Origin: Trueperaceae bacterium
GTDB taxonomy: Bacteria > Deinococcota > Deinococci > Deinococcales > Trueperaceae
Length of the DNA stretch: 64,000 nucleotides
Direction: 5' to 3'
NCBI GenBank assembly: GCA_965213925.1
Contig: OZ243927.1
Location: 3,680,001-3,744,000 of the forward strand
Part shown: positions 1 through 62,700 of the stretch, in pieces
Numbering within the stretch: position 1 is the stretch's first letter
Layout of the letters: the number at the start of each line of letters is the position of its first letter
The notes under the pieces: model-generated
What the model saw: only the letters and a program-made list of their open reading frames with translations
The model's database searches: none
Told to the model about the DNA's origin: nothing
Position numbers and translations under genes: made by a program

Positions 1-1475
1 CTCGTCTGGGCGTTTGGAATGTCCACCTCTCTCGAGCCGGGGGCTAGCGTCTCGCCAGCGGCGTTGACCGCGCCTTCGCTGCGCTGCCCTTCCAGGAGTT
101 CGGGTCCGGTTTGCGGAGTGCCCTCTAAGCGCTCGGCTGAACTAGGGGCGGCTTCGGACGGCAAGCTGCCCGAGCCGTTCGCGTCTTCGCCCTCGGGTAC
201 GTTCTGCGCGCCGCCCTCTTGCTCGCCCTCTTGGGCTCCGGCTGAACCGCCCTGCGCGCTCTCGCCCTGAGTGGGGTCGCCCTCGCTCTGTCCGCTCTCC
301 CCTGCTCCCTCTTCCTGCTGGCCCTCCTGCTGACCTTCACTCTCGCCCTGCGCCCCTTGGGGCTGCTCGCCCTCCGCGCTTTGCTCCTGCTCGGAGGGCG
401 TACCTTCCGAGCCGCCTTCCTGTTGCTCGCCTTCGCGAGGGGACTGGGTCTGTTCCGGCGCGCCTTCACCGGACGCGCCCTCTTCTTGTCCGTCCTGGGC
501 ACCCTCGCCTTGTTCTCCTTGTTCTCCTTGCTGACCTTGCTCTCCCTGTCCCTGCTGACCCTCGCCTTGTTCACCCTGCTGGTCTTGGGCACTCTGATCG
601 CGCTGCCCCTCGTTCGGCGCTTGCGAGCCCTGGTTAGGCGCTGCGCCCCCCTCGCCCTGCGCCTCGTCCCTCGAGAAAGGGTTGCGCTCTGCGCCACTAG
701 GCTGCGCCCCGTCCTCCTGCGCCTCTAAAGACTCCAAGTAACGCTCTAAGGTCTCGCTGTCGGCGCTTCCCTCTGCGTCCATTTCACCGCCCTCGCCGCT
801 GACGTCTTCGCCGGGCGCGTCGAAGGTGCGCTCTAACTCGGGTTGCGCGTCCTGAGCGGCGTCCTCTGCCGCGGGAGCTTCGGGCGTTTCGGCTTCGTCC
901 GCGCCACCGTCCGCACCTTCGTCTGCGTCGCTCTGCGCAGCGGGCGGCGCGCCCTCGTTGGGGGATAAGGGCGCGTTGTCGCCCCCTAAGCCGCCTCCCA
1001 AACCACCGGGGAGGCTGAGCGCCGGGAGCACCGCGAGGCTAAGCGCCACCGCGAGCAGCGGGAGCCACCAGGGTTGCGCGGCGGGCGGCTCGAGCCGCTT
1101 CGTCGTGCGCTCGACCTGCGCGCTCAGCGCCCGCACGAAGCCGTAGGCGTCCTCGTCCGGGCGCTCTGGTCGCTCCAGCGCCGTGCGGTAAGCGAGCCCC
1201 GCGCGTTCGTCTATCCAGCCGAGCGCCCAAGGTTCGGTACGCTCTAAAGGCCAGGCAAACCCCGCCGCGAACCCTAGCCCGACGGACGCGAGGTGTAGCG
1301 CGAAAGGGAGGTCGAGAAGCCAAGCCACAAACGATGCGGCGAGCGCCGCGCCCGAACAGATGAGGAGCCTCGAGCGCCGCGCGCGACCTCGTGCGAGCGA
1401 GCGGTGCAAGGTTAGGGAGGGCGCGGCTTCGCTTGCGCCCGTATTCTGTCTTTGTCTCTGACTGGGTTTAATCAT
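1..1475 (-). CDS. Membrane-anchored protein with a long acidic Gln/Glu/Gly-rich disordered C-terminal region (3' end outside the window)
   Basis: Read by hand. ATG at 1475, just after the upstream TAA (1478-1480), gives MIKPSQRQ...LLICSGAALAASFVAWLLD...AGLAYRTALE...PWWLPLLAVALSL and then QGEQGEGQQGQGEQ repeats. The frame stays open to the window edge, which is why it is missing from the ORF track. Confidence 0.8.
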   Translation of the reverse strand, partial: MIKPSQRQRQNTGASEAAPSLTLHRSLARGRARRSRLLICSGAALAASFVAWLLDLPFALHLASVGLGFAAGFAWPLERTEPWALGWIDERAGLAYRTALERPERPDEDAYGFVRALSAQVERTTKRLEPPAAQPWWLPLLAVALSLAVLPALSLPGGLGGGLGGDNAPLSPNEGAPPAAQSDADEGADGGADEAETPEAPAAEDAAQDAQPELERTFDAPGEDVSGEGGEMDAEGSADSETLERYLESLEAQEDGAQPSGAERNPFSRDEAQGEGGAAPNQGSQAPNEGQRDQSAQDQQGEQGEGQQGQGEQGQQGEQGEQGEGAQDGQEEGASGEGAPEQTQSPREGEQQEGGSEGTPSEQEQSAEGEQPQGAQGESEGQQEGQQEEGAGESGQSEGDPTQGESAQGGSAGAQEGEQEGGAQNVPEGEDANGSGSLPSEAAPSSAERLEGTPQTGPELLEGQRSEGAVNAAGETLAPGSREVDIPNAQT

Positions 1476-1477
1476 CC

Positions 1478-2101
1478 TTATGCCCCCTCTTCACGCGGCG
1501 TCGGGCGAACGAGGTAGACCAGCGTCGCACCTGCACAGAGCCCCGCTAAGGCGAGGTGCAACGCGGAAACGTGCGCGACCGCGGTAAACGGATTGAGTAT
1601 CGGCTGCGCCACCCAAGAACTCGCCCACACGTCGAACGAGACGACGCCGACGAGGATGAGGGGCACGACGAGCGGCAAGAGCGTGCGCAGCCTCAGCTTG
1701 CTGAGCAGCGCGCCGAGCGCTAGACCGACCCCGAAGAACGCGGCGATGTCTAAGGTACACGCGAGGAGCGACCACCAGAGCGGCGTCACGGGGTAGCTCG
1801 CGGCGTAGGTCGCAGTTTCTAAAGGCAGCGCGAGCACGTGAAAGCAGCCGAGCGCGGCGAGCGTGAGCCGCTGCTCGGTGCGCGAGCGCGGGCTCGAGGT
1901 CGCGCCGTAAGCGAGCCCTAAAAGCGCCAACGCCGCCACCTTGGTCTGCGCGAGCGCGTACCAACTGTTGTTGGTCTCGAGCGCGTCCGAGGGCCAGGAG
2001 ATGACCAGCACGAAGATGAGGAGCGCGAGCAGCCCCATAAAGAGCTGCGTCATATCCTCACGGCGTAAGAGGGCGCTGAGCGCCCCTAAGGACGAGGTCA
2101 C
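1478..2101 (-). CDS. Multi-pass membrane protein (ABC-2 permease-like / hypothetical)
   Basis: 207 aa with about 6 hydrophobic segments; GTGA overlap with the upstream gene. Confidence 0.75.
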   Translation of the reverse strand: MTSSLGALSALLRREDMTQLFMGLLALLIFVLVISWPSDALETNNSWYALAQTKVAALALLGLAYGATSSPRSRTEQRLTLAALGCFHVLALPLETATYAASYPVTPLWWSLLACTLDIAAFFGVGLALGALLSKLRLRTLLPLVVPLILVGVVSFDVWASSWVAQPILNPFTAVAHVSALHLALAGLCAGATLVYLVRPTPREEGA

Positions 2102-3591
2102 AGCCCTGCCTCCGCGCAGTAACGGGCTGTCCCGCCGTCCGCACCGCTTCGTTTTTGGGCGGGTCCGGTCGGCTCATCCGTCAGCTCGCCCACCCCTTCG
2201 CCTACCCCTTCGTCCAGCGCATCCCCGCGCGCACTTTCGGACGCGCTCGGTAGAGGCGACGTAGATGTGACCGCCGCTGCGCGCGAGCGCACTGCCGCGC
2301 GGGAGGTGCGGCAGGAGCGGGCTGTAGGTCGCAGGGGGCAAGCTGTCGCGCATCCGCACGGCGAGGCGTTCGCATCGGCGGCGATGTCGCCCTGTTGCCC
2401 GAACCCTACGACGAACACGTCGCCCAGGGGAGCCGAACCGCTATTGACCAGCGCGTCGCCCTCCCAGTAGAACGTCGCCGTTTCGAAGCGCGGCGCGAGC
2501 ACGAGCGTGACCGCCGACCAGCGCGGCATATCGAAGCGGAGGCTGCCTGGCGACGCCCGCCACGAGGTCAGCTCGAGGGGATAAGCGTTGACGTCTAAAC
2601 GGCGCGTCCCTTCGGGCAGGCTAAAGAGCGTGCGCAGCTCCAGGGTCTGCGCGAGCCCGCCGCTCGCTAGGGTGACGCTGCGGCTGCGGGTCAGGGTGGC
2701 GTCGGCGGGTCTCAGGTAGCCCCACGCGCCCGCGGCGAAAAGGAGCGCCAGCGACAGCCCCGCGATAAGCCCCGGCACGCGCCCGAAGCGGACCACGAGG
2801 AGCGCGGCGAGCGCGTAGAGGCTCGCACCCAGCAAAACGACTTGCTGCGGCATGCTCGGCGGGCCGCGCTGCAGGTCGGGCGAGATGAGGGCGCTTTGCA
2901 GCGCGTTACGCTCTATCGTCGGCAGTGGCGACACCTCCGCGCCTTCCCCTACGCGCTCGAGCCAACCCGACCCGAGACGCTGCACCTCGCGCCGCGCGAG
3001 CCCGCGCAGGTCACCCGTGAGCGGTTCTAACAGGCGCACACTCGTCCCCGCCGCCGCCGCCGCCGCTACCGTCCGAGCGGACGCCTCGCCTCCGACCCAC
3101 AGCGTCGCCACGCCCGCATACGCGCTCGGACGCCCAGGCAGCGTATCCGCACGCACGTCGACGACTCTCGCCTCACGCGCTAAGGCGTCAGGCGGTAAGT
3201 TGACGCCCATACCTAAGAGGTGGAGCGGTCGTGGGTCGACCCTGCGCCTATCGATGCTGCCACTCGCCAAGACGCTATCTTGGGTCCGCACCGCCCAGGT
3301 CAGCCGCCGCCACGCCGGGATGTAGAGGTCGTCTTCGAACACATAAAGACCGCTGCCCCCGGCTAAAGGGGCGCGGTAAGAGACGAGTTGCTCGCCGTCG
3401 CGCAGGTTGCCCTGGTCGATCTCTAAAACGAACTCGGCCGCGCTCCGGTCACGTAAGGAGATGCGCAGCGGGTTCCAGGTATTCGCGACCACCTCACCGG
3501 AGAAACCCAGCGTCACCTGAACGTCGCTGTTCTGAGCCAAAGCAACGCTCAACGCCGAAAGGAGTGCGAAGAAAAAACTAACTCTAACCAC
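2098..3591 (-). CDS. Exported/membrane hypothetical protein with a signal peptide and two TM helices; C-terminal ~40 aa may lie in a shifted frame
   Basis: Probable GTG start at 3591, signal peptide ending ALA-Q, N-terminal V-x-L-G-F-x-G...W-N-P-L beta domain, TM pair near aa 250-295. Confidence 0.7.
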   Translation of the reverse strand: MVRVSFFFALLSALSVALAQNSDVQVTLGFSGEVVANTWNPLRISLRDRSAAEFVLEIDQGNLRDGEQLVSYRAPLAGGSGLYVFEDDLYIPAWRRLTWAVRTQDSVLASGSIDRRRVDPRPLHLLGMGVNLPPDALAREARVVDVRADTLPGRPSAYAGVATLWVGGEASARTVAAAAAAGTSVRLLEPLTGDLRGLARREVQRLGSGWLERVGEGAEVSPLPTIERNALQSALISPDLQRGPPSMPQQVVLLGASLYALAALLVVRFGRVPGLIAGLSLALLFAAGAWGYLRPADATLTRSRSVTLASGGLAQTLELRTLFSLPEGTRRLDVNAYPLELTSWRASPGSLRFDMPRWSAVTLVLAPRFETATFYWEGDALVNSGSAPLGDVFVVGFGQQGDIAADANASPCGCATACPLRPTARSCRTSRAAVRSRAAAVTSTSPLPSASESARGDALDEGVGEGVGELTDEPTGPAQKRSGADGGTARYCAEAGL

Positions 3592-3909
3592 TACCCATAG
3601 TTTACCAGCTGACTCCTGAGAAACCGTGACCCGCGCAGACGAACCCATCCGCATACGTGCAGCGTTTGCAAAGAGGGTTGCGAGCGTTCCGACCTTATTC
3701 TGAGCGTTGAAGTGCTTCGGCTTCGAAAACCTCAACCACTATAAAAAGGTTTCTACGCTTGAGGCGGACTTCGTTGGCGTTCTCCAGTTCAGATTATTTC
3801 GGTGAACCTACCTTGTTCTAAGCGTTTAGCAGTTACCAATCAGCGCTATGAGGCGTCGCGGCGAATCCTGCACACGCTGACGAGCGCGGCGTCGCCTGTG
3901 CCCGCAACC

Positions 3910-11585: not shown

Positions 11586-12524
11586 CTAGGGGTTAGGCCG
11601 CACGTCGTAGATGAGGCGAAAGGTGTAGTCACCTGGCTGTTCCGATCCGTCGACCGAGAGCGAGAAGTCGCTCGGCGAGAGGAGCGGCTCGAAGCCGTAG
11701 GTCGGCGACGCGGTGCTGAAACGCCGCCCCTCGGCGCTCTGCCCGGCGAGGTAGAGGCGGTCAGTAAGTGACGCGCTAGCGGGATTAGGCAAGACGTCAT
11801 CTTGTACAACGCTGACGGTGACGGTGTAACCCTGTGGGTTGTTGGTGAAGACCTCGAGCGTGCGGATGTCGCTGCTCGTCGCGCTTAACGGCGTGAGCGT
11901 TTCGGTCGCCCGTAGATACGTCATGACCCCCTTGCCGCTGTAGTCGAACTCGAGCGTCGCGGTCTGCGCGGTGACGAGCGAGCGCTCGACGCGCAGCGAG
12001 GTCGCTGTGGGCACGACCACGCGAACATCGTGGCGCACGGACGAGTTGCCCGCGCGGTACGTCAGCGAGGTCGTGTAACTGCCCGCGACCTCGCCTCCCG
12101 AGAGCTGCGCGCGGTACTCCACGCTTATCTCGGTGCGCTTGTCGCGTCTGGCGATGACCTCTTGCCAAGGCTCGTCCAGCGAGAGCCAAGGCGTAACGTA
12201 CCGGTCGTCCTTTTTCGACGAAAAGGTGAGGCGCGCCTGCAGCTCGGGTGCACCAGCGGGGCGTGAAGACGGCTCGACCCGGAAGGTGTAGCGCTTACTT
12301 TTGTCCACGCGCATACGGATGTTGGGGCTCGAGGGCTCAGGCTCTACGCTGCCGCCGAGCGCCGCCAAGTAGACCTCGCTCGTCGGTGCGAAGGCGACGC
12401 GCCCGGAGGAGCGAAAGCGGAGCCGCTGGGCGTCTGCGGTGCCCAGCAGTCCGAAGAGGCACAAAAGGACTAAGCAGACGCGCCGGGCGCGTCTGCCACA
12501 GTGTCCTCTTGCAGGGGCGATCAT
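11586..12524 (-). CDS. Two-domain secreted pilin-like protein (putative tip/initiator subunit)
   Basis: Signal peptide (ADA-Q). Domain 1 ends GSYTTSLTY. Domain 2 starts HDVRVVVP and ends DGSEQPGDYTFRLIY, both motifs shared with the upstream paralogues. Confidence 0.7.
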   Translation of the reverse strand: MIAPARGHCGRRARRVCLVLLCLFGLLGTADAQRLRFRSSGRVAFAPTSEVYLAALGGSVEPEPSSPNIRMRVDKSKRYTFRVEPSSRPAGAPELQARLTFSSKKDDRYVTPWLSLDEPWQEVIARRDKRTEISVEYRAQLSGGEVAGSYTTSLTYRAGNSSVRHDVRVVVPTATSLRVERSLVTAQTATLEFDYSGKGVMTYLRATETLTPLSATSSDIRTLEVFTNNPQGYTVTVSVVQDDVLPNPASASLTDRLYLAGQSAEGRRFSTASPTYGFEPLLSPSDFSLSVDGSEQPGDYTFRLIYDVRPNP

Positions 12525-13312
12525 GGAACAGAGATCGGCAACTCCGCCACGAGCAGTTCGCCCCGGCTGTCCTGGATGAGCGCCAGCGCGACGTAGAAGC
12601 CCGCTTCGACCTCAGGAGGTAGGGGCAGGAGCAGCTCGCGCTCGCTGTCACGCAGTATCGGCACGCTAGGCACCTCTACACTGTGCTTGACCTCGCCCAT
12701 CTCGTCGCGCAGCTCGACGTGTCCGCCTAAACGCATGAGCGTGTTGCCCGTGTTGGCAATAGCCAGCGTCAAGGACGCTTCGTCTTCCTGCCAGAAGTCC
12801 ACGACTTCGGCGCTGTTACGCTCCGTACCCGCAACCGTGATGTAGACCGTCAAGCCGATGCGGGTCGTTGTCACCACGCCGACGCCCATCAGCGCAGACT
12901 CGGGCGGGACCACGCGGAAAAAGACCATGTCGTGATAGGTGCCCCCTTCGGCGTCCGGCGGAACCGTGACGGAAACGCGCAGGTCGCGGCTCGAATTGGG
13001 TTCCAAAAAGAAGTCCGTGCTCTCCAGACTGATCCAGTTCGCGGCGCTATGCTCCGAGCTGTTCGCAGGCAAGAAGGTGACGTTGCCCGCTAAGTCGAGC
13101 GTCCAGTCGTTCACTTCGGACGTGACCTGGAGCCGCTCCGAGCTATTGGTAATGAGCGTAACGGTCTCGGTGATGGTCTGACCGGGGCTGCCCACAAGCG
13201 TGAGGCGCGGCGGCGAAAGTCCGATGTCGGTCGCTTGCGCGACGAAGGTAGAGGCGAAGACGAGACTCAGTAGGAGCGGGGTTAGGACTCGAGAAAAGCG
13301 TAAGGTGTGCAT
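12521..13312 (-). CDS. Secreted PapD-like/DUF916 (WxLIP)-like chaperone
   Basis: Signal peptide; IGLSPPRL start; SAANWISL...LEPNSSRDLRVSVTVPPDAEGGTY...RIGLTVYITV; second Ig-like domain with NTGNT. Confidence 0.72.
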   Translation of the reverse strand: MHTLRFSRVLTPLLLSLVFASTFVAQATDIGLSPPRLTLVGSPGQTITETVTLITNSSERLQVTSEVNDWTLDLAGNVTFLPANSSEHSAANWISLESTDFFLEPNSSRDLRVSVTVPPDAEGGTYHDMVFFRVVPPESALMGVGVVTTTRIGLTVYITVAGTERNSAEVVDFWQEDEASLTLAIANTGNTLMRLGGHVELRDEMGEVKHSVEVPSVPILRDSERELLLPLPPEVEAGFYVALALIQDSRGELLVAELPISVP

Positions 13313-13316
13313 ACCT

Positions 13317-13970
13317 TTAAGGATAGAAAATTGCATAGGTCACCGTTGTGGAATATTCGCCCGGGTCTTCGTCGCCGTCCACCTTGACGCGGTAGTCCTG
13401 CCCGCTAAAGCCCAGCGTCTGCCAGCCTCTCGTCCCGAATATGCTGAGAGCGACCTCTTGAGGGTCGGTGGAGAGCGCCCACGCACCGCTTATGCGACCC
13501 CACGCTACCGCGCTTTGATTAAGCCCGGAGACCGCGCCGCGCACCACTTGGATGTCCTCCAGGGCAAATCCTGCGCCTTGCGCTGCGCCGCGATACTCGA
13601 GCGGCGACGCTGTGACCTCCACATACCAGAGGGGTAGACCGAAGCCCGTACGGACGGACACCTGCACGTCCGCGAAGTCAGTCACGTTCGAAGCGCCTAT
13701 ATAGCCCGAGCCTTCATAAGCTTCTGTGTAAGCCGCCACGTCCGAGGCGTAGTCGAAATTCACGGCGGGCGAACCCCTCGGGACGTTCGCGTCGTTCACG
13801 ATGCGGATACCGAAGAAGCTCGGTATCCCGACCTTGACGTCGTGCTCAGCAGACTGCGCGGCGGCGCGTGAGAACCCGAGTGCGGCGCAGATGAGCGTAA
13901 GGAAGACCAAAGCTTTGACCAGACCTTGGCGCTCGGTATAGATTTGTCGGCGTTTTATCATCTGAGTCAT
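13317..13970 (-). CDS. Secreted pilin-like subunit (minor)
   Basis: AAA-Q cleavage, HDVKVGIP, TRGWQTLGF, DGDEDPGEYSTTVTY. Confidence 0.75.
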   Translation of the reverse strand: MTQMIKRRQIYTERQGLVKALVFLTLICAALGFSRAAAQSAEHDVKVGIPSFFGIRIVNDANVPRGSPAVNFDYASDVAAYTEAYEGSGYIGASNVTDFADVQVSVRTGFGLPLWYVEVTASPLEYRGAAQGAGFALEDIQVVRGAVSGLNQSAVAWGRISGAWALSTDPQEVALSIFGTRGWQTLGFSGQDYRVKVDGDEDPGEYSTTVTYAIFYP

Positions 13971-14039
13971 CACCTAACCTTGTAAATGCGAACCGCGACG
14001 TAAGCGCCTGCACGTGGGTATGCGGCTCGCTACGCGAAA

Positions 14040-14066
14040 GTAGCCGCCGCGATACGCGGCGGCTAC
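14040..14066. terminator. Intra-operon hairpin after the putative major subunit (partial terminator or mRNA stabiliser)
   Basis: GTAGCCGCCGCG-ATA-CGCGGCGGCTAC, a perfect 12-bp stem. Confidence 0.6.
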
Positions 14067-14082
14067 AGAGCTAAACTCAGGT

Positions 14083-14655
14083 TTAGTTGCTGAAGATGTT
14101 GTAGGTGACTGTGGTGCTGTAGTCGCCCGCGTCCTCGGTGCCGTCGAACGTGACGCGGAAGTTGTCGGGACCGAAGCCGAGGCTTTCCCAACCTCTGGTC
14201 TTAGCGCTGCTCTCAGAGCCGTCGTTGCCGGCGATGAACGGGTCCATCAGATCGAATGAGGCGTTGATATTCGCGCCAGTCGCGCCCTCGATTGTCACTT
14301 GGTCCCAGTCGAAACCTTCGCCGTCGACCGGCTCAGGGCCCGTCTTGTCAGACAGCGTCATCCCGACAAACCAGTTCACGTCGTTCGAGAAGACCTGGAC
14401 GTCATCCCAGTTGTAGCCGCCGTCGGTAGGCGTAGACGCCCCGAAAGATGTACCCGTCTCGAACCGTGTTGCGTCCGTTACGAAGTCGAACAGAACCGCG
14501 TCAGGTGCGCTGACCGGCGCGTTGCCGTCGACGAAGCGGATGCGCAAAACGTTAGGGATTTTGACCTCGACGTCGTGCTTACCCTCTGTCTGAGCGAAAG
14601 AGACACCTGAGCTGAGGACGGCTGCTGCTGCGAGTAAACCTAAAACCTTTTTCAT
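14083..14655 (-). CDS. Secreted pilin-like subunit (putative major), 190 aa
   Basis: GGGAGGA RBS, MKK signal peptide with SFA-Q cleavage, HDVEVKIPNVLRIRF, TRGWESLGF, DGTEDAGDYSTTVTY. Confidence 0.8.
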   Translation of the reverse strand: MKKVLGLLAAAAVLSSGVSFAQTEGKHDVEVKIPNVLRIRFVDGNAPVSAPDAVLFDFVTDATRFETGTSFGASTPTDGGYNWDDVQVFSNDVNWFVGMTLSDKTGPEPVDGEGFDWDQVTIEGATGANINASFDLMDPFIAGNDGSESSAKTRGWESLGFGPDNFRVTFDGTEDAGDYSTTVTYNIFSN

Positions 14656-14675
14656 GACATTCCTCCCGGAATAAC

Positions 14676-14748
14676 TTCGGCCGGTTGCGCTACTAGCTCC
14701 ATCTTGCCCAAGCGCCCAAATACGGGTCAAGACTTCATCGCGTCCGAA
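14676..14748 (-). promoter_or_regulatory. c-di-GMP-II riboswitch aptamer (copy 1)
   Basis: TTCGGACGCGATGAAGTCTTGACCCGTATTTGGGCGCTTGGGCAAGATGGAGCTAGTAGCGCAACCGGCCGAA: P1, GA/GA kink-turn, TGGGC loop, GCGCT/AGCGC pseudoknot and GCAACCG pocket. A TATACT -10 lies at 14804-14809. Confidence 0.9.
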
Positions 14749-15115
14749 AGGAACCCTCCGCGTGGGTGAATTTGGGGTGGCGGAGGTGCGTTCAACTAAA
14801 ATTAGTATACGGATTCGCTCTTACAAAATTCTGACGAGAAAGCGGCTCAGGGACGTTAAAAATCCCACTAAGTTTGCACGAGATAAACTCGCTCAAAACT
14901 GTAAAAACATCACGAAGCTTTGCCGCGCCAAAAGCAACCTAATCTTGAAGATATAGCGTCCTAAATAACCCGCAAGGCTCTACGCGCCTCACTTATATAT
15001 TGTGGGAGGTTCGCCGCAGTTACCGAAGAGGTAGACGAAGAGGTTGTGCGTTGAAAAGAGATTGAGCTTTAAGCTGCTCGAGCTTCTCGCCGAAACTTCA
15101 AGCGGACGTCATAAC

Positions 15116-15586
15116 TTAAGGGCGCGTCACCGTATACGTCACTGTGCCTTGATAGCGCCCATCCGCCGGCAAGCTCTGGAGACCGTAGCGCAGGTCGAAG
15201 TTCTTCCAGCCGCCCGTGTTCTCGCCGCTCTCGATAATCTGCGGATAGGCGGTGAAGCGCTCCCAGTTCCCCTCGGCTTCGGCTCGCCACATAAGCTGCG
15301 CCGCCGCGTCCGCCTCGCTCGCCGGGACGTAGCTCGCGGAGAGCTGCCACGCGCTATTGGCCATGACCTGAACGTTGCTGCCCGCGGGCGCAATTTCGAA
15401 CGCGCCGTTCGACACGCGGATGTCGACATCGACGTTCGCCTTATCTTGCGCGACCTTGTCGTCAATTTTGAGCCTGAGAACGTTGGGAATACCGACGCTT
15501 ACGTCGTGGCTTGCGCTCTTCTGCGCCGCTGCAATGTTGAGCGAACCTAAACTTACGAGAAAAAACAAAACGAAACCTTTACGCAT
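15116..15586 (-). CDS. Secreted pilin-like subunit (short paralogue), 156 aa
   Basis: AAA-Q cleavage, HDVSVGIPNVLRLKI, ANSAWQLSA, TGGWKNF, GRYQGTVTY. Confidence 0.78.
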   Translation of the reverse strand: MRKGFVLFFLVSLGSLNIAAAQKSASHDVSVGIPNVLRLKIDDKVAQDKANVDVDIRVSNGAFEIAPAGSNVQVMANSAWQLSASYVPASEADAAAQLMWRAEAEGNWERFTAYPQIIESGENTGGWKNFDLRYGLQSLPADGRYQGTVTYTVTRP

Positions 15587-15629
15587 CCAAACCACCCTTT
15601 CGTGGAATGGATGCAACCACCTTGTAGAG

Positions 15630-15705
15630 CAGGTATCATCTGGTTATAAACGCCCTCTTTCGAGGAAGCGCTGCTCGAGCACGCACATTCAAAGATGAAG
15701 TCCCG
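15630..15705 (+). repeat. MITE-like repeat copy in the pilin-gene leader
   Basis: CAGGTATCATCTGGT...AGCACGCACATTCAAAGATGAAGTCCCG. Confidence 0.7.
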
Positions 15706-15768
15706 CTAGCTCTTCGAGCTGAGACTTGCGTGGTTCAAGCTCAGTAACGATAAAACCGATAGCTCCAT

Positions 15769-15844
15769 GTTCGGCCGGTTGCATCACTGGCTCCCCGAGT
15801 CCCATGATGCCCAGATAGGGAAGATCGGTTCATCGCCTCCGAAC
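15769..15844 (-). promoter_or_regulatory. c-di-GMP-II riboswitch aptamer (copy 2)
   Basis: GTTCGGAGGCGATGAACCGATCTTCCCTATCTGGGCATCATGGGACTCGGGGAGCCAGTGATGCAACCGGCCGAAC; the pseudoknot covaries (GCATCA/TGATGC). Confidence 0.87.
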
Positions 15845-16010
15845 GCCATAAAAAACGCTCGACCAGGGGCACTTAGCCCGGCTGCTCGAGTGAGGTTCGC
15901 ATTTGGAGGGTAGCTTAGAGGCTACGCTCTGTTTTAGGTATTCGCAGTCGCGGTGCCGAGAGAACTCTCGAGACCGGGTGAAACCTGCTCAACAAGCGAG
16001 TTATTCACCC

Positions 16011-16080
16011 TCGGCCGGGTGCGCTACTAGCTCAGCTTGTTCCAAGCGCCCAGATACAGAACAAGCGTCGTCGCTTCCGA
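16011..16080 (-). promoter_or_regulatory. c-di-GMP-II-like riboswitch aptamer (copy 3, variant GCACCCG)
   Basis: TCGGAAGCGACGACGCTTGTTCTGTATCTGGGCGCTTGGAACAAGCTGAGCTAGTAGCGCACCCGGCCGA; a TACACT -10 lies at 16111-16116. Confidence 0.82.
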
Positions 16081-16484
16081 AGTTGTTCAGGTTGCCCTGA
16101 ACTTGTATAGAGTGTAGCGTGACTTAGGCGTAGAGGATGTGCATCCGTCACATCAGGCGCGAGTCCGTTTTTTAGTTAGCGCAAGAGGGTTTGAGAGAAG
16201 TCTTGGATGAGAGGGTATCACCCTAAACCGTTAAGCGAAGGGGCTCGTTTTTTATCCTCGCCCGGACCAAGGAAACAAAAGTGGAGATTCTTTTGCGGCC
16301 CAGTTTATTCAGAAGGGCAGCAGGAGGATACCGGTGATTCGCCCTTTCCTCTTGCATCAACACGCCTAGCGTCCACACCCGCACCTATGGTATGCTTTTA
16401 CGTCTTATCGGCGCATGGCGCTTTAGCGTTTTAGCCCTGAAGTCGCGCCCTTTAACTCGCATTCATTCCACCGGAGGAATCAAG

Positions 16485-19800: not shown

Positions 19801-20964
19801 ATGGTTCCAACGAAAGAAGAACTCAAAACGCTCGGTGCACAGACGGGGCTCAACGTCTCCATCTATATGCCTACTCACATGGCAGGAGCCGACACGCGCG
19901 AAAATCCCATCCGCTTCAAGAACCGCTTGCAAGAGGCGGAGCGCCGCCTGAACGAGCACGATATCGACCCGAGCAGGATTGACACGCTGCTCGGCTCGGC
20001 TCGGCAGCTCGTGGACAATAACGACTTCTGGCAGCACCAGCGCGAAGGCTTCGCGATGTTTCTAAGCGAGTCGGAGCAGCGCCAGTACAAACTACCTTTC
20101 TCGCCAAAAGAGATCACCGTCGTCGCGGAGCACTTTCACGTCAAGCCGATGTTGCCCTTTATCGGGGAGGGCGAGCACTTCTTCATCTTAGCGGCGAGTC
20201 TCAATAACGTACGACTCTTCGAGGCGACGCGCTTCGACGTGAGCGAAGTCGAGTTAGAAAACACGCCCACGAGCCTCGACGAAGCGCTCAGGTACGACGA
20301 CGCCGAGCCGACGCTGGACCACTACACCATCGCCGCAGGTGGACGCGGCGGCGTCGGGCAAGGCGCCGTCATTCAAGGGCAGGGCTCGGGCAAAGACGAG
20401 CGCAACGTCAACATCTTGCGCTTCTTTAAGGAACTCGACAACGGTGTGCGGCGCATCTTAGAGCCGCAAGGGAGCCGCATTCCGGTCGTGTTCGTAGGCG
20501 ACAAGGGTATCTTCCCTATCTATCAAGAGGCGAACCACTACGGCGGTCTTTTGGACGAAAACGTGGACGGCAATCCTGACAACTTAGACGCCAAAACGAT
20601 CCATGAGAAAGCGTGGCCCGTGGTGGAGCCGCACCTGCAAGGGCAGCGCGAAGAGGATAAGAACAACTACATGCATAAAGCGGGCGCGGACCCCGAGCAC
20701 GCCTCGGACAGTTTGGAGGACATCCTCCCCGCCGCCTTCGACAGCCGCATCGAAACGCTTTTCGTCGCGCAAAACGAGCACCGCTGGGGACGCTATGACC
20801 CGGAGGCGCGCGAGGTTAAACTGAACGATGAAGAGAGAGCGGGCGACAGTGACCTGCTCGACTTAGCCGCGCTTCACACGATCTTGAACGGTGGAACAGT
20901 CTACGCGGTGGAAAAAGAGAGCGTTCCCGGTGACGGGGTCGCGGCGGCGATTTACCGCTTTTAG
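19801..20964 (+). CDS. Bacterial archaeo-eukaryotic release factor-like protein (baeRF3/7 family)
   Basis: VSIYMPTH, FHVKP, VRLFEAT, RIETLFV and GGTVY...AAIYRF motifs. Confidence 0.8.
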   Translation: MVPTKEELKTLGAQTGLNVSIYMPTHMAGADTRENPIRFKNRLQEAERRLNEHDIDPSRIDTLLGSARQLVDNNDFWQHQREGFAMFLSESEQRQYKLPFSPKEITVVAEHFHVKPMLPFIGEGEHFFILAASLNNVRLFEATRFDVSEVELENTPTSLDEALRYDDAEPTLDHYTIAAGGRGGVGQGAVIQGQGSGKDERNVNILRFFKELDNGVRRILEPQGSRIPVVFVGDKGIFPIYQEANHYGGLLDENVDGNPDNLDAKTIHEKAWPVVEPHLQGQREEDKNNYMHKAGADPEHASDSLEDILPAAFDSRIETLFVAQNEHRWGRYDPEAREVKLNDEERAGDSDLLDLAALHTILNGGTVYAVEKESVPGDGVAAAIYRF

Positions 20965-26834: not shown

Positions 26835-27356
26835 TCAGGTATCCCTTCGCGCGTCGGTCTCTGGGCTCGAGCTATAAACTTCGGGGTTTATAGACTCGTC
26901 CTCAGCCTCTTGCGGGCGCTCGAAGAAGCTCGAGATCAGCAGCAGCGCCGCCCCGCCCACCACGCACATATCCGCCACGTTGAAAACTGGATAGTTAAAG
27001 CCCTGTACGTAGAAGTGGATAAAGTCGCGCACAAAGCCGAGCAAGAAGCGGTCGATCATGTTGCCGATCGCGCCGCTCAGGATAAGCGTCAAGGCGGCGA
27101 GTTGCATTTTGGGCATCGTGCGGGCGTGGCGCAAGAGGTAGACGAAGATGGCGACAGAAACGACCGCCGAGAGAATACCTAAAAGAAACGTGCCGCCCTG
27201 CAAAATGCCAAAAGCTGCGCCCGTGTTGCGCGTGTAGGTGAAGTGGAAGCCGAGCCCGAGCGCGAGGTCGGGACCGTTCAGGGGAAAGGTGCTCGCCGCC
27301 CACCACTTGGTGAGCTGGTCTATAGCGACGAGGATAAGAACTGCGAAGAGGTACAT
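26835..27356 (-). CDS. lspA: Signal peptidase II
   Basis: DQLTK, NTGAAFG, GAIGNMIDR, VRDF and FNVAD motifs. Confidence 0.96.
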   Translation of the reverse strand: MYLFAVLILVAIDQLTKWWAASTFPLNGPDLALGLGFHFTYTRNTGAAFGILQGGTFLLGILSAVVSVAIFVYLLRHARTMPKMQLAALTLILSGAIGNMIDRFLLGFVRDFIHFYVQGFNYPVFNVADMCVVGGAALLLISSFFERPQEAEDESINPEVYSSSPETDARRDT

Positions 27357-55705: not shown

Positions 55706-56210
55706 TTGCGAGTATACCGTAAAAGACTGGCGTTTGTTATATGTAGCGGATTTGGCCGTCTTGCTACGTTTGCAGAGCGTTTTATACGGATTCCATGATT
55801 ATGGAATCCGTACGAGTAGTCTGGATAGTCTTTCGTTCTATCTGAAGAGGTAGAATAAACGTCCCAATCAAGTGCGCGAAGGGGTTGCTCGAGCTTAGAG
55901 CAACCCCTCTCTAGCTCGCCAAACGTCACGGCTCTTTAGAGGTTGAAGGTGGCGTTTAAGCGCCGCGTGACAGGGCAATACCTACAAACTTCGGAAAGAG
56001 GTTGGAGAGTGGCGGGCGGCGGATGAGGCGGCTCGGAAGCGTAACTGTGGCGCAGAGAGCCCAAGAAGGTACGTAACTGTACGTAAGAATGATATATTGT
56101 CATTAGCTGCTCAAAAGCTTGCGTGGGCTTACGCTACGCGCCTACGCGCTTCACCGCTGTGTGAGGAACCACTCTACACTACGTTCTAACCTATGGTTCA
56201 AAGGAGTTAC

Positions 56211-57407
56211 ATGACAGGTCCCAGCAGCAGGAAATCGTTCATTGGCCCCTTGCTCGTCCTTCTCTCGGTGGGGCTCTTGGTGGGGTCCCTAGCCGCTTGT
56301 GACGGCGGCGAGACCGAGCAGGAGGAACTGCAGAGCGAACTCACCAGCGCCCGCGACGAGCTGGAGACGACTCGAGAGCGCCTCGGCGACCTGAATAGCG
56401 AGATCGTGACGGCGCGCGCCGGCTCACAGAGTCTCAGGCAGCAGGCCCTCACCCTGGAGGAGGCTAACCAGGTTCGCGCGGACGACGCGGAAGGGGTCGA
56501 GGCGCTGCGCTCGCGAATCGTGGCTCTCGAGGACGACGCGGCGACCTTTGCCGAAACGCAAGCGGAACTTGACGAGGCGCTCGGAAATATCAACTTGGAG
56601 ATTGGCCGGGCTAGCGACCGCGTCCAAGGGGCGCGGAGCGAGCGTGACGGGCTGCTCTCGCAGCTTGCCGAGGCCCAGGCTGCGGTTGCCCAGGGCGGCG
56701 CACAGCTCCAGGAGACCAGAGAAGCCGGCGCAGCAACGCTCACGGCTACCGATAATGAGCGCACGCAGGCCCTCCAAGAGGCTGAACTGCTGCGCGTTCA
56801 AGGCGCGGAGTTAGCCACTCAGATCGCTGAGCAGCGCGAGCAGCTCAGGATGGATGAGGAGACGCTCACGGCGGCGCAAGGCCAGGTCGCCCAACTCGTA
56901 GAGCAGCAGGCGAGCTTGGTCGAGGGGATCGAGCGCACGCGGCGCGAGATTGAAACGCGCCCTAGTGCGGCGGAGGTCGAGCAGCTTTACGCGGAACGTA
57001 GCGACGCAGTAGCCGCACTTGAGGAGGTGCGCGCCGCGCTTAACGCGCGCCCTCGCAGGGAGCAGCTCAACGCCTTTTTGCGCGAAGCCGACGCGCTGCG
57101 TGCGCAGCTCGAGGGGCGACCCGACCCGCAGCTCCTCGAGGATGTGCGAGCGCGCACGCAGGCGCTTAGAGCAGAGCTTGCCGAGAGACCTACGCCCGAC
57201 GCGCTGCAGGCGGCTCAGGCGCGCGTGCGCACGCTGCAAGAGCAGCTCGAGGCGCGGCCCACAGAGGCTGAGTTGGCCGCCGTGCGCGAGCAGATTCGCA
57301 CGCTGGAATTGCAAAGCGCCGCCCCCGCAGCCGGTGGGGACCAAGCCCCCCGAGAGGGCGAGGCTCTACCGGAACCCAGTGCACCTGATGGGGAGGAGAC
57401 ACCGTGA
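56211..57407 (+). CDS. Long coiled-coil lipoprotein with 23-aa RP(T) repeats, paralogue 1
   Basis: AAGGAG RBS, lipobox LAAC, continuous heptads, Pro-rich tail. Confidence 0.8.
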   Translation: MTGPSSRKSFIGPLLVLLSVGLLVGSLAACDGGETEQEELQSELTSARDELETTRERLGDLNSEIVTARAGSQSLRQQALTLEEANQVRADDAEGVEALRSRIVALEDDAATFAETQAELDEALGNINLEIGRASDRVQGARSERDGLLSQLAEAQAAVAQGGAQLQETREAGAATLTATDNERTQALQEAELLRVQGAELATQIAEQREQLRMDEETLTAAQGQVAQLVEQQASLVEGIERTRREIETRPSAAEVEQLYAERSDAVAALEEVRAALNARPRREQLNAFLREADALRAQLEGRPDPQLLEDVRARTQALRAELAERPTPDALQAAQARVRTLQEQLEARPTEAELAAVREQIRTLELQSAAPAAGGDQAPREGEALPEPSAPDGEETP

Positions 57408-58594
57408 AGGTATCTAAAGCTCAGATTGTGGGCGTCACACTCCTGCTGCTATTAAGCCTGGGCGCTTGCGAGCGCAACAGCGGGCGAGAGGTGCTCCAGA
57501 ACGAGCTCCAAGATGAACTCAGCACCGCGCGCGCGGAACTCCAGGAGGTGCGCGCGCAACTGGGTGAACTCGAGGACGAACTGGCAGCGGCGCGTGCGGG
57601 GGCGCAAAGCTTGAACGCGCAAGCCGCCACGCTGGATCAGGCGAGCGCTACCCTCTCGGATAACAGCGAAGGGGTCGGGGCGCTCAGGGCGCGCGCTGAC
57701 GAGCTAGAAACGCAAACCACCGCCTTCGCCGAAGACCAGAGGCGGCTCAACCGCGAACTGAACACAGCCCGCCTGGAGCTGGGGGGGCTCCAAGATCAAC
57801 TGCGCTCGGTTTCAGATGAGCGCGACGACCTGCTCACGAGGCTGTCTCAACTGCGCGCTGCGAACGTCCAGCAAGCGGCGAACCTCGAGGGGTCGGACGC
57901 GGTCGAAGCCACGCGCCGCGCCGCAGCCGAAGCCGCGCGGGACGCGGCGCGCCGCGAGGTCGAGGCCCTGAGAGAGCGCAACGAGGAGCTGCGAGCGCTG
58001 AGTAGCGAGTTGGCAACGCAGTTGGGCGAATCCCGGAGGCTGGTCACCCAGGTGAACGAAGAGGTGGGCGGGCTTACAGAGACGCAGACCACCTTGCAGC
58101 AGGAGCTAACGAGCACTCGCAACGAACTCGAGACCCTCCCGGACGAGGCCGAACGCCGCGCGCTGACAGCGGCGCGGGACGAGGCGCGCGCGCAGCTCGA
58201 GGTGCTGAACCTGGAGTTAAACGCCCGGCCCACCCAGGAGCAGCTAGGCACCGCTCAAGAAGAGGTCGGGAATTTGCGCGCGGACCTCGAAGCGCGGCCC
58301 GCGCGCGCGCAACTCCAAGCCGTGCGCGCCCAGGCCCAGACCCTCGAAGCGGAGCTGAACGCACGGCCCACCCAGGGGGCGCTCGAGGCGGCCCAGGCCC
58401 GCGCCCAGGCCCTCGAGCAGGAGCTTCAAGGGCGACCTACCCGAGCAGCTTTAGACGCTGCGCGCGCGCAGCTCCAGGCTTTACAGCAAGAGAGCACAGC
58501 ACCTGCGCCGAGCCCTGCACCTACCCAAGGGGGACAACCGCCGCAACCCGCCAACCAACCGCCGCAGGGCGACGCGCCACCTCAAGGTGAGTAG
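57404..58594 (+). CDS. Long coiled-coil lipoprotein with 23-aa RP(T) repeats, paralogue 2
   Basis: GTGA overlap, lipobox LGAC, shared ARAG.QSL..QA.TL and EGV.ALR.R blocks. Confidence 0.8.
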   Translation: MKVSKAQIVGVTLLLLLSLGACERNSGREVLQNELQDELSTARAELQEVRAQLGELEDELAAARAGAQSLNAQAATLDQASATLSDNSEGVGALRARADELETQTTAFAEDQRRLNRELNTARLELGGLQDQLRSVSDERDDLLTRLSQLRAANVQQAANLEGSDAVEATRRAAAEAARDAARREVEALRERNEELRALSSELATQLGESRRLVTQVNEEVGGLTETQTTLQQELTSTRNELETLPDEAERRALTAARDEARAQLEVLNLELNARPTQEQLGTAQEEVGNLRADLEARPARAQLQAVRAQAQTLEAELNARPTQGALEAAQARAQALEQELQGRPTRAALDAARAQLQALQQESTAPAPSPAPTQGGQPPQPANQPPQGDAPPQGE

Positions 58595-58741: not shown

Positions 58742-58816
58742 TGGTAGGCGCGGGCAGGATTGAACTGCCGACCTCCACAGTGTCAGTGTGGCGCTCTCCC
58801 ACTGAGCTACGCGCCT
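58742..58816 (-). tRNA. tRNA-Val(GAC)
   Basis: AGGCGCGTAGCTCAGTGGGAGAGCG CCACA-CTGACAC-TGTGG ... GTTCAATC ... CCA. Confidence 0.96.
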
Positions 58817-58904
58817 ATGCGCTAGGTTGCTAAGTGCGTGTGGGTCTGCACTTGGGTATCACCTCACAGGTAATTTGCGGGCGAGATGATACCGCCAGGT
58901 TCCT

Positions 58905-58979
<75 letters not shown>

Positions 58980-59729: not shown

Positions 59730-62700
59730 ATGGCGAACCCCTCCCCCACCTCCAAAACACAGTTTGCCCACCTCCACCAGCACACCGCCTATAGCCTCCT
59801 AGACGGCGCGGCGCGCATCAAAGACCTCATGAAGTGGGTCAAAGAGGTCTCGCCCGAGAACCCTGTTCTGGCGATGACCGACCACGGCAACATGCACGGC
59901 GCGGTGGAGTTCTATAAAGCGGCGGAAAAAGAGGGTGTCAAGCCGATTTTAGGCTTCGAGGCGTACGTGACGGCGGGCTCTCGTTTTGAAAAGAAAAAGC
60001 CGAGTTCAAAGTTAGACGGTGGCTACTTTCACCTCACCTTGTTGGCAAAGAACTTTACGGGCTACCAGAACCTCTGCAAACTGAATTCGCGTGGCTGGCT
60101 CGAGGGCTTCTACATGAAACCCCGCGTAGACCACGAGCTTTTGCGCGAATACTCAGAAGGCGTCATCGCCATGTCGGGCTGCTTGGGGGCGCAGATACCT
60201 AGAAACCTCTTAGATTTAGGACCCGAGCAGGGCGAAGCGGTCTTGCAGCAATATCTGGACATTTACGGTGAGAACTTCTTTATCGAGTTGCAGAACCACG
60301 TGCCAGAGCGCGCCGAGGACATGGACTCGAGCCTCCGCGACTTAGCCGAGCAGCAGACGCGCCTTAACCCGATGCTTAAAAGTTTGGCGAATAAGTACGG
60401 GCTGGGCATGGTCGCCACCAACGACGGGCACTACGTCAAGAAAGAGGACGCCAAAGCGCACGAAGCGCTCTTAGCGATTCAGACGAAGACGACTCTGTCC
60501 GACCCCGGACGCTTCAAGTTTCCCTGCGACGAGTTCTACGTTAAGACGCCCGAAGAGATGGCGCGGGCGATCCCTGAAGACGAGTATCCGAGCGCGTTAG
60601 CTAACAGCATGAACGTCGCGGACCTCTGCGACGTGACGCTGCCGATTGGCTCCAAGCGCGTCTACCAGATGCCCGAGCTGCCGATTCCGGCAGGGCGGAC
60701 GCTCGCCGAGCAGCTCAGGGTACAGACATACGAAGGCTTGACCACGCGCTACGAAGAGATTACCGAAGACCTCTACCGCGACTATTTAGCGTGCTCGGGC
60801 GAGAGTGTGCCGAGTGAGGCGGAAGCGGTCTACCTCAAGCTGGCGCAAGTCGGGGAAAGAGGTCGGACGCCGAAAGAAGAGGGGCAGAACTTCGACACGT
60901 TCGCGTATCCTTGTCTAAAGGCATTTAGAGAACAAGGCACGGCGAGCGAAGAGGCGCTCTTGATTCTCGAGCGCGCCGAATTCGAACTCGGTGTAATTAT
61001 CGCGATGGGCTTTCCCGACTACTTTTTGATCGTCGCGGACTTCATCAACTGGGCGAAGGACCACGGCATCGCGGTCGGACCAGGGCGCGGCTCGGGGGCG
61101 GGCTCCATCGTCGCCTTTGCGACGCGTATCACCGACATCGATCCCTTGGAGTTCGACCTCTTGTTCGAGCGCTTTTTGAACCCCGATAGGGTCTCCATGC
61201 CCGACTTCGACGTGGACTTCTCCGACACGCGGCGCATGGAGGTCGTGGACTATGTGCGGCGAAAGTACGGCGAGGAGAAGGTCGCGCAGATCGCCACCTT
61301 CGGGACGATGGCGTCCAAAGCGGCGATTCGGGATGCGGCGCGAGTGTTAGAAGCGCCTTATGCCGACGCCGACGCGGTCTCGAAACTCATCCCCGTTGTG
61401 TTCGGACGCTCCACGCCGATAGCCAGGGCGATGGATGAAGTTACCGAGATCAAGCAGCTCTACGACAACGGTGCGAAGGAGTTCGTGGACGTCGCGATGA
61501 GTTTGGAGGGCTTGACGCGCCACGCCTCGGTGCACGCGGCGGGCGTCATCATCGCCCGCGAGCCCGTGCAAGAACTCGCGCCCGTCTTTCGCAGCGGCGA
61601 CGGTCCCATCGTCTGTCAGTACGACATGGGCTCGGTGGAGGACTTGGGTTTTATCAAGATGGACTTTTTGGGCCTCAGGACGCTCTCCTTTATCGAGGCG
61701 GCGATTCGCATTGTCAAGGAGTCGCGCGGGGTGGAACTCGACCCGGACGCGTTCCCGAAAGACGACGAGAAGACGTTTGGGCTCCTCTCGAGGGGCGAAG
61801 CCGCCGGCGTCTTCCAGTTCGAGTCGCCCGGCATGGTCGATACGCTCAAAAAGCTCAAGCCGCGCCGCGTCCAAGACCTCATCGCGGTCTCGGCACTCTA
61901 CCGCCCCGGTCCGATGGAGAACATCCCGACCTACATCCGGCGGCACCACGGCGCGGACAATCCGGACTTTTCCGAGGACCCCTACGCGGAGTTTCCCGAG
62001 TCGCGACAGTATTTAGAGTCCATCTTAGAAGAGACCTACGGCATCCCTGTCTATCAAGAACAGATCATGCAGATCGCTCAAGCCGTGGCGGGCTACTCTT
62101 TGGGCGAAGCCGACCTCTTGCGGCGGGCGATGGGTAAGAAAAAAGTCGAGGAGATGGAAAAGCAGCGCAAAATCTTTTTAGAGGGTGCGAAGGCGAAGGG
62201 TATCCCTAAAGATGAAGCGAGCCGCATCTTCGACCTCTTGGAGAAGTTCGCGAACTACGGCTTTAACAAGTGCGTCGTGGGCGAGACGCTCATCCCGGAC
62301 GCACAGACGGGGCAGCTTCACACTGCCGCAGACCTCTTTAGTGAACACCACCGACCTGAAGTCGTGAGCGTTCAAGAGGACTTCAGTCTGACGCAGAGTA
62401 AAACGGTGCAGACGATGCAAAACGGTGTTAAACCCGTTTACACCCTCACCACCTCTTTGGGCAAAGAGATTATAGCGACGGGCAACCATCCGTTTAGAAC
62501 GCTGGACGGCTGGAAGAACTTAGAAGATTTGCGCGTAGGCGAGCGCGTCGCGTCGCCCGCGCACCTGTCTGTGGCGGGGCAAGAGGTCTGGGACGCGCAC
62601 AAGCTCATCACGCTGGGTTGGACGCTCGCGGAGGGTAACACGTGTCATCCATGTGGCGTTTACCTCTACAGCAACAACGAGGCTACCGTGGCGGATATGG

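Follow-up and report, generated by a model that had tools for sequence, protein, structure and literature searches.

A 64-kb stretch of DNA from a Trueperaceae bacterium (hereafter the window, meaning the whole stretch that was analyzed) carries at positions 11586-16116, with every element on the minus strand, a real, conserved and previously unannotated operon of five genes for secreted proteins, designated A to E. The leaders of the operon contain three class II riboswitch aptamers for cyclic diguanylate (c-di-GMP). On balance, the operon probably encodes a thin, adhesive, pilus-like surface fiber that is assembled through donor-strand exchange with the help of a chaperone and made when c-di-GMP is high. 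It is not a categorically new kind of machine; it would be built from strongly diverged forms of components that other pilus systems have.

To our knowledge, chaperone-guided donor-strand exchange has long been held to require the Gram-negative usher. Two 2026 preprints extend the principle, with no canonical usher, to Gram-positive cocci (bioRxiv 10.64898/2026.10.17.759780) and to bacteria of the Candidate Phyla Radiation, or CPR (bioRxiv 10.64898/2026.03.03.709456), each reporting its system as confined to its own group. The locus described here suggests that the chaperone-guided donor-strand principle operates in Deinococcota too. Its novel parts would be a soluble DUF916-type chaperone, a pilin family unmatched by database models, and possibly a new outer-membrane translocator.

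The operon and its relatives

Genes A (15116-15586; 156 amino acids), B (14083-14655; 190 amino acids) and C (13317-13973; 218 amino acids) are open reading frames (ORFs) for small, paralogous pilin-like subunits. Past the signal peptide the three proteins carry HDVSVGIP, HDVEVKIP and HDVKVGIP, respectively, and their C-terminal ends read GRYQGTVTYTVTRP in A, GDYSTTVTYNIFSN in B and GEYSTTVTYAIFYP in C. Gene D (12521-13336; 271 amino acids, or, starting from the second methionine, 263, the length of the database copy P0001) encodes a chaperone-like protein with two immunoglobulin-like (Ig-like) domains, and its stop codon overlaps the start of gene E (11586-12524; 312 amino acids), which encodes a two-domain subunit. 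A single hydrophobic segment, at the N-terminus, is present in each of A, B, C and D; the corresponding stretch of E, judged by eye, is shorter. Scanned for LPXTG-like motifs, for lipoboxes and for a hydrophobic segment at the C-terminus, the five proteins show none of these. No product of the operon reaches a curated Pfam or NCBIfam cut-off, and sequence-family searches with A, B, C and E returned nothing usable from either collection.

The D alignment, used for a single scan of the species genomes in GTDB, yields 18 related loci, all from Trueperaceae or from unclassified metagenome-assembled genomes. Gene E follows D in every one of the 18, and genes of the A, B or C type lie upstream of D in 13; three loci begin inside D. 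A search for a conserved gene upstream of the operon found none. Gene order and riboswitches are conserved within Trueperaceae genomes.

The initial annotation of this DNA had described five co-oriented secreted-protein genes, three of them paralogues sharing HDVxVxIP, GW and GxYxxTVTY motifs, followed by a two-Ig-domain chaperone-like protein and a two-domain subunit; it had placed three c-di-GMP-II aptamers in the leaders, seen a mixture of DUF916/WxL and chaperone-usher character, and noted the absence of a usher, sortase, SipW or prepilin peptidase from the neighborhood. All of this is borne out by the results given here. Pfam scans of 45 window ORFs (25 at E-value ≤1e-5 and 20 at ≤0.01, with three ORFs in both) found no usher, sortase, SipW-type peptidase, prepilin peptidase or secretin. 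A lipoprotein signal peptidase (Peptidase_A8) is present in the window at 26835-27356.

Protein D as a probable chaperone

Structure prediction gives good support to the reading of D as soluble and chaperone-like, a member of the DUF916/WxLIP superfamily whose fold is PapD-like. The AlphaFold2 model, based on an alignment of 32 sequences, has a predicted local distance difference test score (pLDDT) of 92.1 and a predicted template modeling score (pTM) of 0.81; it consists of two beta-sandwich domains and terminates in a beta strand, residues 261-270. Its top Foldseek matches in the Protein Data Bank (PDB) are structures of Enterococcus faecium WxLIP (9i1y_A, E-value 5.3e-12, and 9i25_C, E-value 7.6e-12; Foldseek probability 1.00, template modeling score, TM, about 0.46-0.49). 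The next matches are CsuC (4e-10), CfaA (7e-10), Caf1M, DraB and FimC, all with probability 1.00 and E-values between 4e-10 and 1e-8. The only hydrophobic segment of D is its N-terminal signal, so that the protein has no membrane anchor. D also has a conserved strand, RIGLTVYITV.

The profile of D, searched against 1.84 billion representative sequences, finds 9399 at E-value ≤1e-3, 2588 at ≤1e-10 and 60 at ≤1e-30, and 5 of 25 representatives scanned from this search pass the cut-off of PF06030 (WxLIP_PGBD/DUF916). Since the profile reaches PF06030-positive proteins in this way, D can be placed, by transitive homology, as a distant member of the DUF916 superfamily. D itself has no match at E-value ≤1 to PF11797 (DUF3324) or to the PapD families PF00345 and PF02753; there is a weak lead to PG_0320-like_C, and the only match of the D profile in the PDB is a marginal one, 2qsv, at an E-value of 0.012.

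A word-index search lists 134 relatives of D, unnamed or hypothetical, with Trueperaceae the sole organism name among them. Relatives also include a protein of Marinithermus hydrothermalis with the UniRef name "P pilus assembly protein, chaperone PapD," two proteins in IMG whose names likewise refer to PapD, a Deferrimicrobium "DUF916 domain-containing protein," and proteins of Aerophobetes, these being among the few for which the source gives an organism. The 2588 D-like representatives at E-value ≤1e-10 point to a large unexplored family.

The subunit family

When A, B, C and the C-terminal half of E are aligned, identity to A is 20-31%, and the invariant columns are H-D-V-x-V-x-x-P, which in A, B and C stands directly past the signal peptide, T-x-G, followed by W in A to C and by F in E, and G-x-Y-x-x-x-x-x-Y at the C-terminus. 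The same motifs are found again in the orthologues of other genomes. The best-conserved parts of the family are its two ends, the N-terminal HDVxVxIP strand and the C-terminal GxYxxTVTY strand. Because N- and C-terminal strands pair with each other in donor-strand exchange, we regard this sequence pattern as a stronger argument for reading the subunits as donor-strand pilins than any of the fold matches. The N- and C-terminal strands are likewise reported to be the most conserved parts of the subunits in Pam pili (bioRxiv 10.64898/2026.03.03.709456) and to form the interface in Elr pili (bioRxiv 10.64898/2026.10.17.759780).

Fold prediction for C is suggestive of a pilin-like subunit. In its AlphaFold2 model (pLDDT 85), residues 39-52, which include HDVKVGIP, have no assigned secondary structure, while the mature chain is otherwise a beta domain; confidence is at its lowest in this part, with pLDDT blocks of 62-63 on average for residues 31-50. 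The best-ranked Foldseek matches are nearly all subunits of donor-strand filaments, namely CfaB (E-value 2.6e-3 to 4.9e-3, probability up to 0.97) and CsuA/B (probability 0.96), with a Pyrobaculum bundling pilin, the pilin domain of PapGII, CupE, CS17 and TasA among the other top matches. The WxL chain of 9i25 is not among the C fold matches listed. Nor does sequence point to the WxL family, which matches none of A, B, C and E at E-value ≤1 and none of 16 family members (16/16 negative) at ≤5, or to the spore-coat-U family, which matches no subunit at permissive thresholds. The subunit profile matches A at an E-value of 1.5e-36, and A-type orthologues are present in 8 related loci. A word-index search with C lists 18 relatives; each of them is unnamed or hypothetical, and none has precomputed Pfam domains.

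Protein E has two domains. Homology to the subunit family extends over residues 162-309 and takes in the donor-like strand (hhalign probability 98.6%, E-value 7.3e-16). A separate N-terminal domain of about residues 33-160 terminates in the pilin-like GSYTTSLTY; after it come an internal HDVRVVVP strand and then the pilin-like domain at the C-terminus. This architecture is kept in 15 aligned orthologues. Against the NCBIfam model for the C-terminal region of Pam pilins, NF058581, E scores 17.8 bits (cut-off 55) over one stretch of 32 residues. Most E orthologues carry a CxGC cysteine pair in the N-terminal domain, which the window E does not (region 12340-12420).

Proposed riboswitch control

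The three c-di-GMP-II aptamers all exceed the gathering score of the Rfam model RF01786 (53.5 bits) across its full length of 84 positions when scanned with cmscan. Aptamers 1 (16004-16087; 76.3 bits, E-value 1.9e-15) and 2 (15764-15849; 63.0 bits, E-value 1.1e-11) form a tandem pair in the leader of A, and aptamer 3 (14670-14754; 63.5 bits) lies in the leader of B. Sixteen additional aptamers of this class occur in 11 of the 18 related loci, each in the leader of a gene of the A or B type. The related locus L001 has a tandem pair too, and the B-like gene has a riboswitch of its own in 11 of the 12 loci that contain such a gene.

The arrangement in front of B fits a translational ON switch. 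In the window, 14 nucleotides separate the end of aptamer 3 from the start codon of B, and the Shine-Dalgarno sequence stands directly past the 3' strand of the aptamer helix P1. All 12 aligned B leaders show this order, with the P1 3' strand, then the Shine-Dalgarno sequence, then a start of the ATGAAGAAG type, the start codon falling 6-20 nucleotides past the aptamer. With the consensus UCCUUCGG, the P1 5' strand is complementary to GGAGGA, and in the unconstrained minimum-free-energy (MFE) fold of the window leader it is paired with the Shine-Dalgarno sequence; when P1 is forced to form in silico, the probability that the Shine-Dalgarno sequence is unpaired goes from 0.00 to 0.64. Computed accessibility rises on forcing P1 in 8 of the 12 leaders. 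It is from this release of the Shine-Dalgarno sequence on P1 formation, after its pairing with the P1 5' strand, that we infer the polarity of the switch.

Between aptamers 1 and 2, the centroid fold of 15845-15910 contains a terminator-like hairpin with a run of six U residues (15850-15890), which is the likely expression platform of aptamer 1; the tandem pair ahead of A probably relieves this terminator. A simple terminator scan did not list the hairpin.

A strong GC-rich hairpin (14040-14066), attenuator- or terminator-like, stands directly 3' of the B stop codon. Its MFE is -27.9 kcal/mol (z-score -4.48), none of 200 shuffled sequences is as stable, and an equivalent is present in 10 of 11 related loci. 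Given this hairpin, and by analogy with major-pilin genes, B is probably the major subunit, with attenuated read-through into C-D-E. Should the control operate as read here, the locus would offer a compact model for c-di-GMP control of a pilus by riboswitch only, with three aptamers, one operon and one apparent translational ON switch. A sigma-70 scan gave only two weak promoter-like sites, not above shuffled sequence. A weak sigma-70-like site just 5' of C (13957-13986, minus strand; 9 of 12 matches) could drive riboswitch-independent transcription of C-D-E.

Gene F and the outer membrane

Deinococcota possess an outer membrane, which any adhesin fiber has to cross. The flanks of the related loci hold an obvious candidate for a non-canonical translocator in this family, an ORF of about 980 amino acids that we call F. 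F is convergent to E and adjoins it in 15 of the 18 loci (L002-L008, L010-L014 and L016-L018; for example L004:11746-14682, minus strand), or in 15 of 16 informative ones. Of the loci without it, two end at or just past E, and L015 has a transposase in its position. In several loci E and F share 4 nucleotides at their 3' ends. F is 29-43% identical to the reference in eight of nine comparisons, the ninth (L014) giving 94%, and the genes beyond it vary from locus to locus. With the linkage to F kept while the outer flanks vary, the block from A to F behaves as a unit.

F begins with a signal peptide and N-terminal Ig-like domains (PF23619) and ends in Ig-like domains of the CarboxypepD_reg/SdrD_B type; the central region, about 380 residues rich in Gly, Trp and Arg, ends in ...YAF. 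The nearest named language-model clusters to this central region are, at 0.85, an "outer membrane protein beta-barrel family" and, at 0.80-0.83, several clusters of Usher proteins, scores that lie below 0.9 and so serve as leads only. F may thus be an outer-membrane barrel flanked by Ig-like domains. The F profile finds in the PDB only the Ig-like domains of SdrD and NOMO. Scans of the related loci covered 80 ORFs in their flanks and turned up no Usher, PapC, sortase, secretin or prepilin peptidase family. The window genome either keeps F elsewhere or does without it.

Three of the related loci depart from the common pattern. L006 (9000-11700) and L007 (4200-7100) keep D, E and F; upstream of D they have no detectable A-, B- or C-type gene and no riboswitch, and instead a methyltransferase gene (L006) or a solute-binding-like ORF (L007) is found there. 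L015 (9300-12500), flanked by DDE transposase genes, looks degraded or poorly assembled, its B-like ORF being without a signal peptide and its D shortened to 182 amino acids. This is the one locus whose B-like gene has no riboswitch, none being found there at E-value ≤1.

Comparison with known systems

One close likeness is to the Elr/WxL pilus of Enterococcus faecalis, a system of the DUF916/DUF3324 chaperone ElrE and WxL pilins. A DUF916 protein, ElrE, is reported to have been shown to act as the donor-strand chaperone of that pilus, and ElrD to polymerize with only its chaperone (bioRxiv 10.64898/2026.10.17.759780). The nearest solved structure to D is an enterococcal WxLIP, and HMMER supplies the DUF916 link; both systems have small and large subunits, one chaperone and no canonical usher, and in both the N-terminal strand of the subunits is amphipathic and their C-terminal strand conserved. 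According to the same preprint, 96.7% of WxL chaperones have a C-terminal membrane helix, which D lacks, and D stays below the cut-offs of PF06030 and PF11797. The subunits have no WxL domain match, A to E include no LPXTG base subunit and the window no sortase (although LPXTG and sortase are variable in the Elr family), the host here is a diderm of the Deinococcota, control is by riboswitch, and the Elr/WxL system is reported only from Bacillota among 4,698 genera.

The Csu system of Acinetobacter baumannii and CFA/I of Escherichia coli share with the locus a soluble, periplasmic, two-domain chaperone of the same fold (predicted in the case of D), the best, if weak, fold matches of C (CfaB and CsuA/B), a complement of several pilins, a chaperone and a two-domain subunit, and a link to biofilms. 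Unlike the chaperone-usher systems, the operon has no component in their sequence families and no usher gene, and F, as the candidate translocator, lies convergent, differs in its domain count and is missing from the window.

For Pam pili it is proposed that no trans-envelope machine is required, and their pilins are reported only in CPR bacteria (bioRxiv 10.64898/2026.03.03.709456). As described there, they resemble the present locus in having a PapD-like chaperone, donor-strand exchange (proposed here from sequence and models) and no canonical usher, and the layout of E, with an N-terminal domain, a linker strand and, at the C-terminus, an acceptor domain, resembles that reported for PamA and PamB. 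PamC and PamD, however, are described as membrane-anchored and their hosts as lacking an outer membrane, and A, B and C are single-domain proteins.

For control, the nearest parallel is in Clostridioides difficile, where class II c-di-GMP switches are reported to be ON switches for adhesins and type IV pili, RF01786 aptamers standing in the leaders of surface-adhesion genes (PMC11477304). The genes controlled here encode donor-strand-type subunits rather than the type IV pilins or sortase substrates reported for that species, the B leader looks translational in place of a terminator switch, and a tandem pair stands ahead of A.

Literature searches found no description of such a system in Deinococcota or Truepera. 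Subunits of the type V pili of Bacteroidota are made as lipoprotein precursors, and this type was rejected on the lack of a lipobox in A to E. Sortase pili were rejected on the lack of LPXTG in A to E and of a sortase in the window.

Two claims of the initial annotation need to be reworded in this light. That the fiber was undescribed stands for Deinococcota as far as the literature searches reach, while donor-strand pili without a canonical usher are now reported in the 2026 preprints from Bacillota (Elr/WxL) and CPR (Pam). That the system was usher-less with an unknown export route stands insofar as no canonical usher is found in the window or in the 18 loci, and is undercut by F adjoining E in nearly all informative ones. 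The locus should rather be described as lacking a canonical usher; its relatives have a conserved candidate for an outer-membrane partner, which is not found here.

A proposed model for assembly, and its alternatives

In the mechanism we propose, c-di-GMP would bind the three aptamers, all of class II. The tandem pair in front of A would probably relieve its terminator, and aptamer 3 would hold the P1 5' strand, which acts as an anti-Shine-Dalgarno sequence, in P1, leaving the ribosome-binding site of B free and translation ON. B, with its strong 3' hairpin, would probably be the abundant major subunit, and C, D and E would be made at a lower level. The five proteins would be exported by Sec and cleaved past an AxA motif, giving A, B and C a free N-terminal HDVxVxIP strand. 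D, as a soluble periplasmic chaperone, would cap each subunit by donor-strand complementation, and polymerization would follow as the N-terminal strand of one subunit inserts beside the C-terminal GxYxxTVTY strand of the next. E, with an extra N-terminal domain ahead of its donor strand, would be an adhesin or adaptor subunit. In most Trueperaceae the outer membrane would probably be passed by way of F, a candidate non-canonical, usher-like protein, which is not at the window locus.

Several results weigh against this reading. D reaches no curated cut-off, scoring 15.3 bits against PF06030 where 27.3 are needed, and hhalign gives its profile a 0.3% probability of matching E. coli FimC, which is the expected outcome for a likeness of fold only. 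The Foldseek matches of C are weak (of 500 counted, none is at E-value ≤0.001; the best is at 2.6e-3, with TM 0.28-0.47), and the subunit profile has no match in the PDB at E-value ≤10 or to any Pfam family. On the RNA side, forcing P1 brings no gain in Shine-Dalgarno accessibility in 4 of the 12 B leaders, and the hairpin between aptamers 1 and 2 has a z-score of only -1.28, statistically not distinctive. F is on the opposite strand to the operon, its cluster scores are those of a lead, and none of ten F proteins matches Usher at E-value ≤1; hhalign of F with E. coli FimD gives 2.7%, a figure of little weight because D, with the fold of FimC, also scores null. Neither tblastn nor a profile search found F in the window, it is missing from L015 too, and a search that scored 8000 candidates lists 29 F homologues, none of them on the large contigs in which the nearest D relatives of the window are found.

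A wider form of the donor-strand reading is less probable, and we put it forward tentatively. Chaperone-guided donor-strand pili would then have a third, independent lineage in Trueperaceae, and with it their first case in a diderm of a chaperone from the DUF916 superfamily, here a soluble rather than an anchored one; the pilin family would be undescribed. The outer membrane would be crossed through F as a new usher-like barrel unrelated in sequence to PapC and FimD or, in this genome, with no dedicated pore. If this is true, the thousands of D-like proteins would mean that such pili are widespread and have been overlooked.

It seems unlikely that the locus is an ordinary but extremely diverged chaperone-usher system of the archaic type, with F as its usher, moved in this genome to another place on the 4.58-Mb chromosome. 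The gene content does mirror the Csu layout of several small pilins, a chaperone, a usher and a two-domain tip subunit. D comes nearly as close to CsuC and CfaA as to WxLIP, CfaB and CsuA/B are among the better fold matches of C, and F, with 15 of 16 informative loci placing it beside E, has Ig-like domains on both sides of a barrel-like center. Archaic systems are, moreover, reported in Deinococcus-Thermus (PMC4654587). Against so ordinary an origin, neither D, F nor the subunits match PapD_N, Usher or spore-coat-U at permissive thresholds, HMMER ties the D family to DUF916 and not to PapD, both profile comparisons, with FimC and with FimD, are null, and F is convergent and outside the operon.

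A system truly without a usher has, in our judgment, a similarly low probability. Polymerization would proceed from chaperone-subunit complexes, the fiber would be periplasmic or part of the envelope or would leave by an unrelated route, and F would be an unrelated surface protein. An adhesin fiber in Deinococcota must nonetheless get across the outer membrane, and the tight linkage of F, kept while the other flanks differ and despite 29-43% identity in eight of nine comparisons, with 4-nucleotide overlaps with E, counts against this possibility. The absence of usher, secretin and sortase families from the 64-kb window and from the flanks of the 18 loci favors the usher-free possibility, although for this genome such negatives cover the window only; so do the intact operon and riboswitches in the window despite the absence of F, and the absence of an F homologue, among the matches listed, from the contigs of its nearest relatives. 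Precedents have been reported in ElrD, which polymerizes with its chaperone alone (bioRxiv 10.64898/2026.10.17.759780), and in the proposal for Pam pili (bioRxiv 10.64898/2026.03.03.709456).

Least probable is that there is no fiber at all, A, B, C and E being monomeric secreted beta-sandwich proteins, such as lectins of the envelope or matrix, with D as an Ig-like partner or anchor: the weak fold matches of the subunits, carbohydrate-binding modules and viral jelly rolls included, would allow it, and DUF916/DUF3324 proteins were earlier cast as binders that link bacterial and host surfaces (PMC10599100), yet it is mainly the terminal strands that the paralogues have in common, the monomer model of C leaves the N-terminal strand unstructured, D has a chaperone fold by AlphaFold2 and Foldseek, several paralogous subunits are encoded in the operon, where an attenuator hairpin follows B, and ElrE is now reported as a pilus chaperone (bioRxiv 10.64898/2026.10.17.759780).

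Other features of the window

The operon sits among housekeeping genes, flanked by rnpA-yidD-yidC-jag and, across from these, by a short-chain dehydrogenase gene, and base composition shows no island-like anomaly. Just downstream of rnpA-yidD-yidC-jag, at 19801-20964 (plus strand), is a gene for a protein with domains like bacterial archaeo-eukaryotic release factors (baeRF). At 3-3735 (minus strand) there are three successive ORFs without a Pfam family (545, 207 and at least 491 amino acids), the middle one a multi-pass membrane protein and the last with a long, acidic, low-complexity tail rich in Gln, Gly and Glu. A DNA polymerase III alpha gene at 59730-63998 (plus strand), whose ORF runs past the window end, contains an intein whose homing-endonuclease domain is of the LAGLIDADG type. 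A coiled-coil protein with weak matches of the intermediate-filament type is encoded at 57404-58594 (plus strand), after an ORF of 404 amino acids without a family (56193-57407, plus strand), and two tRNA genes lie downstream of it at 58745-58979.

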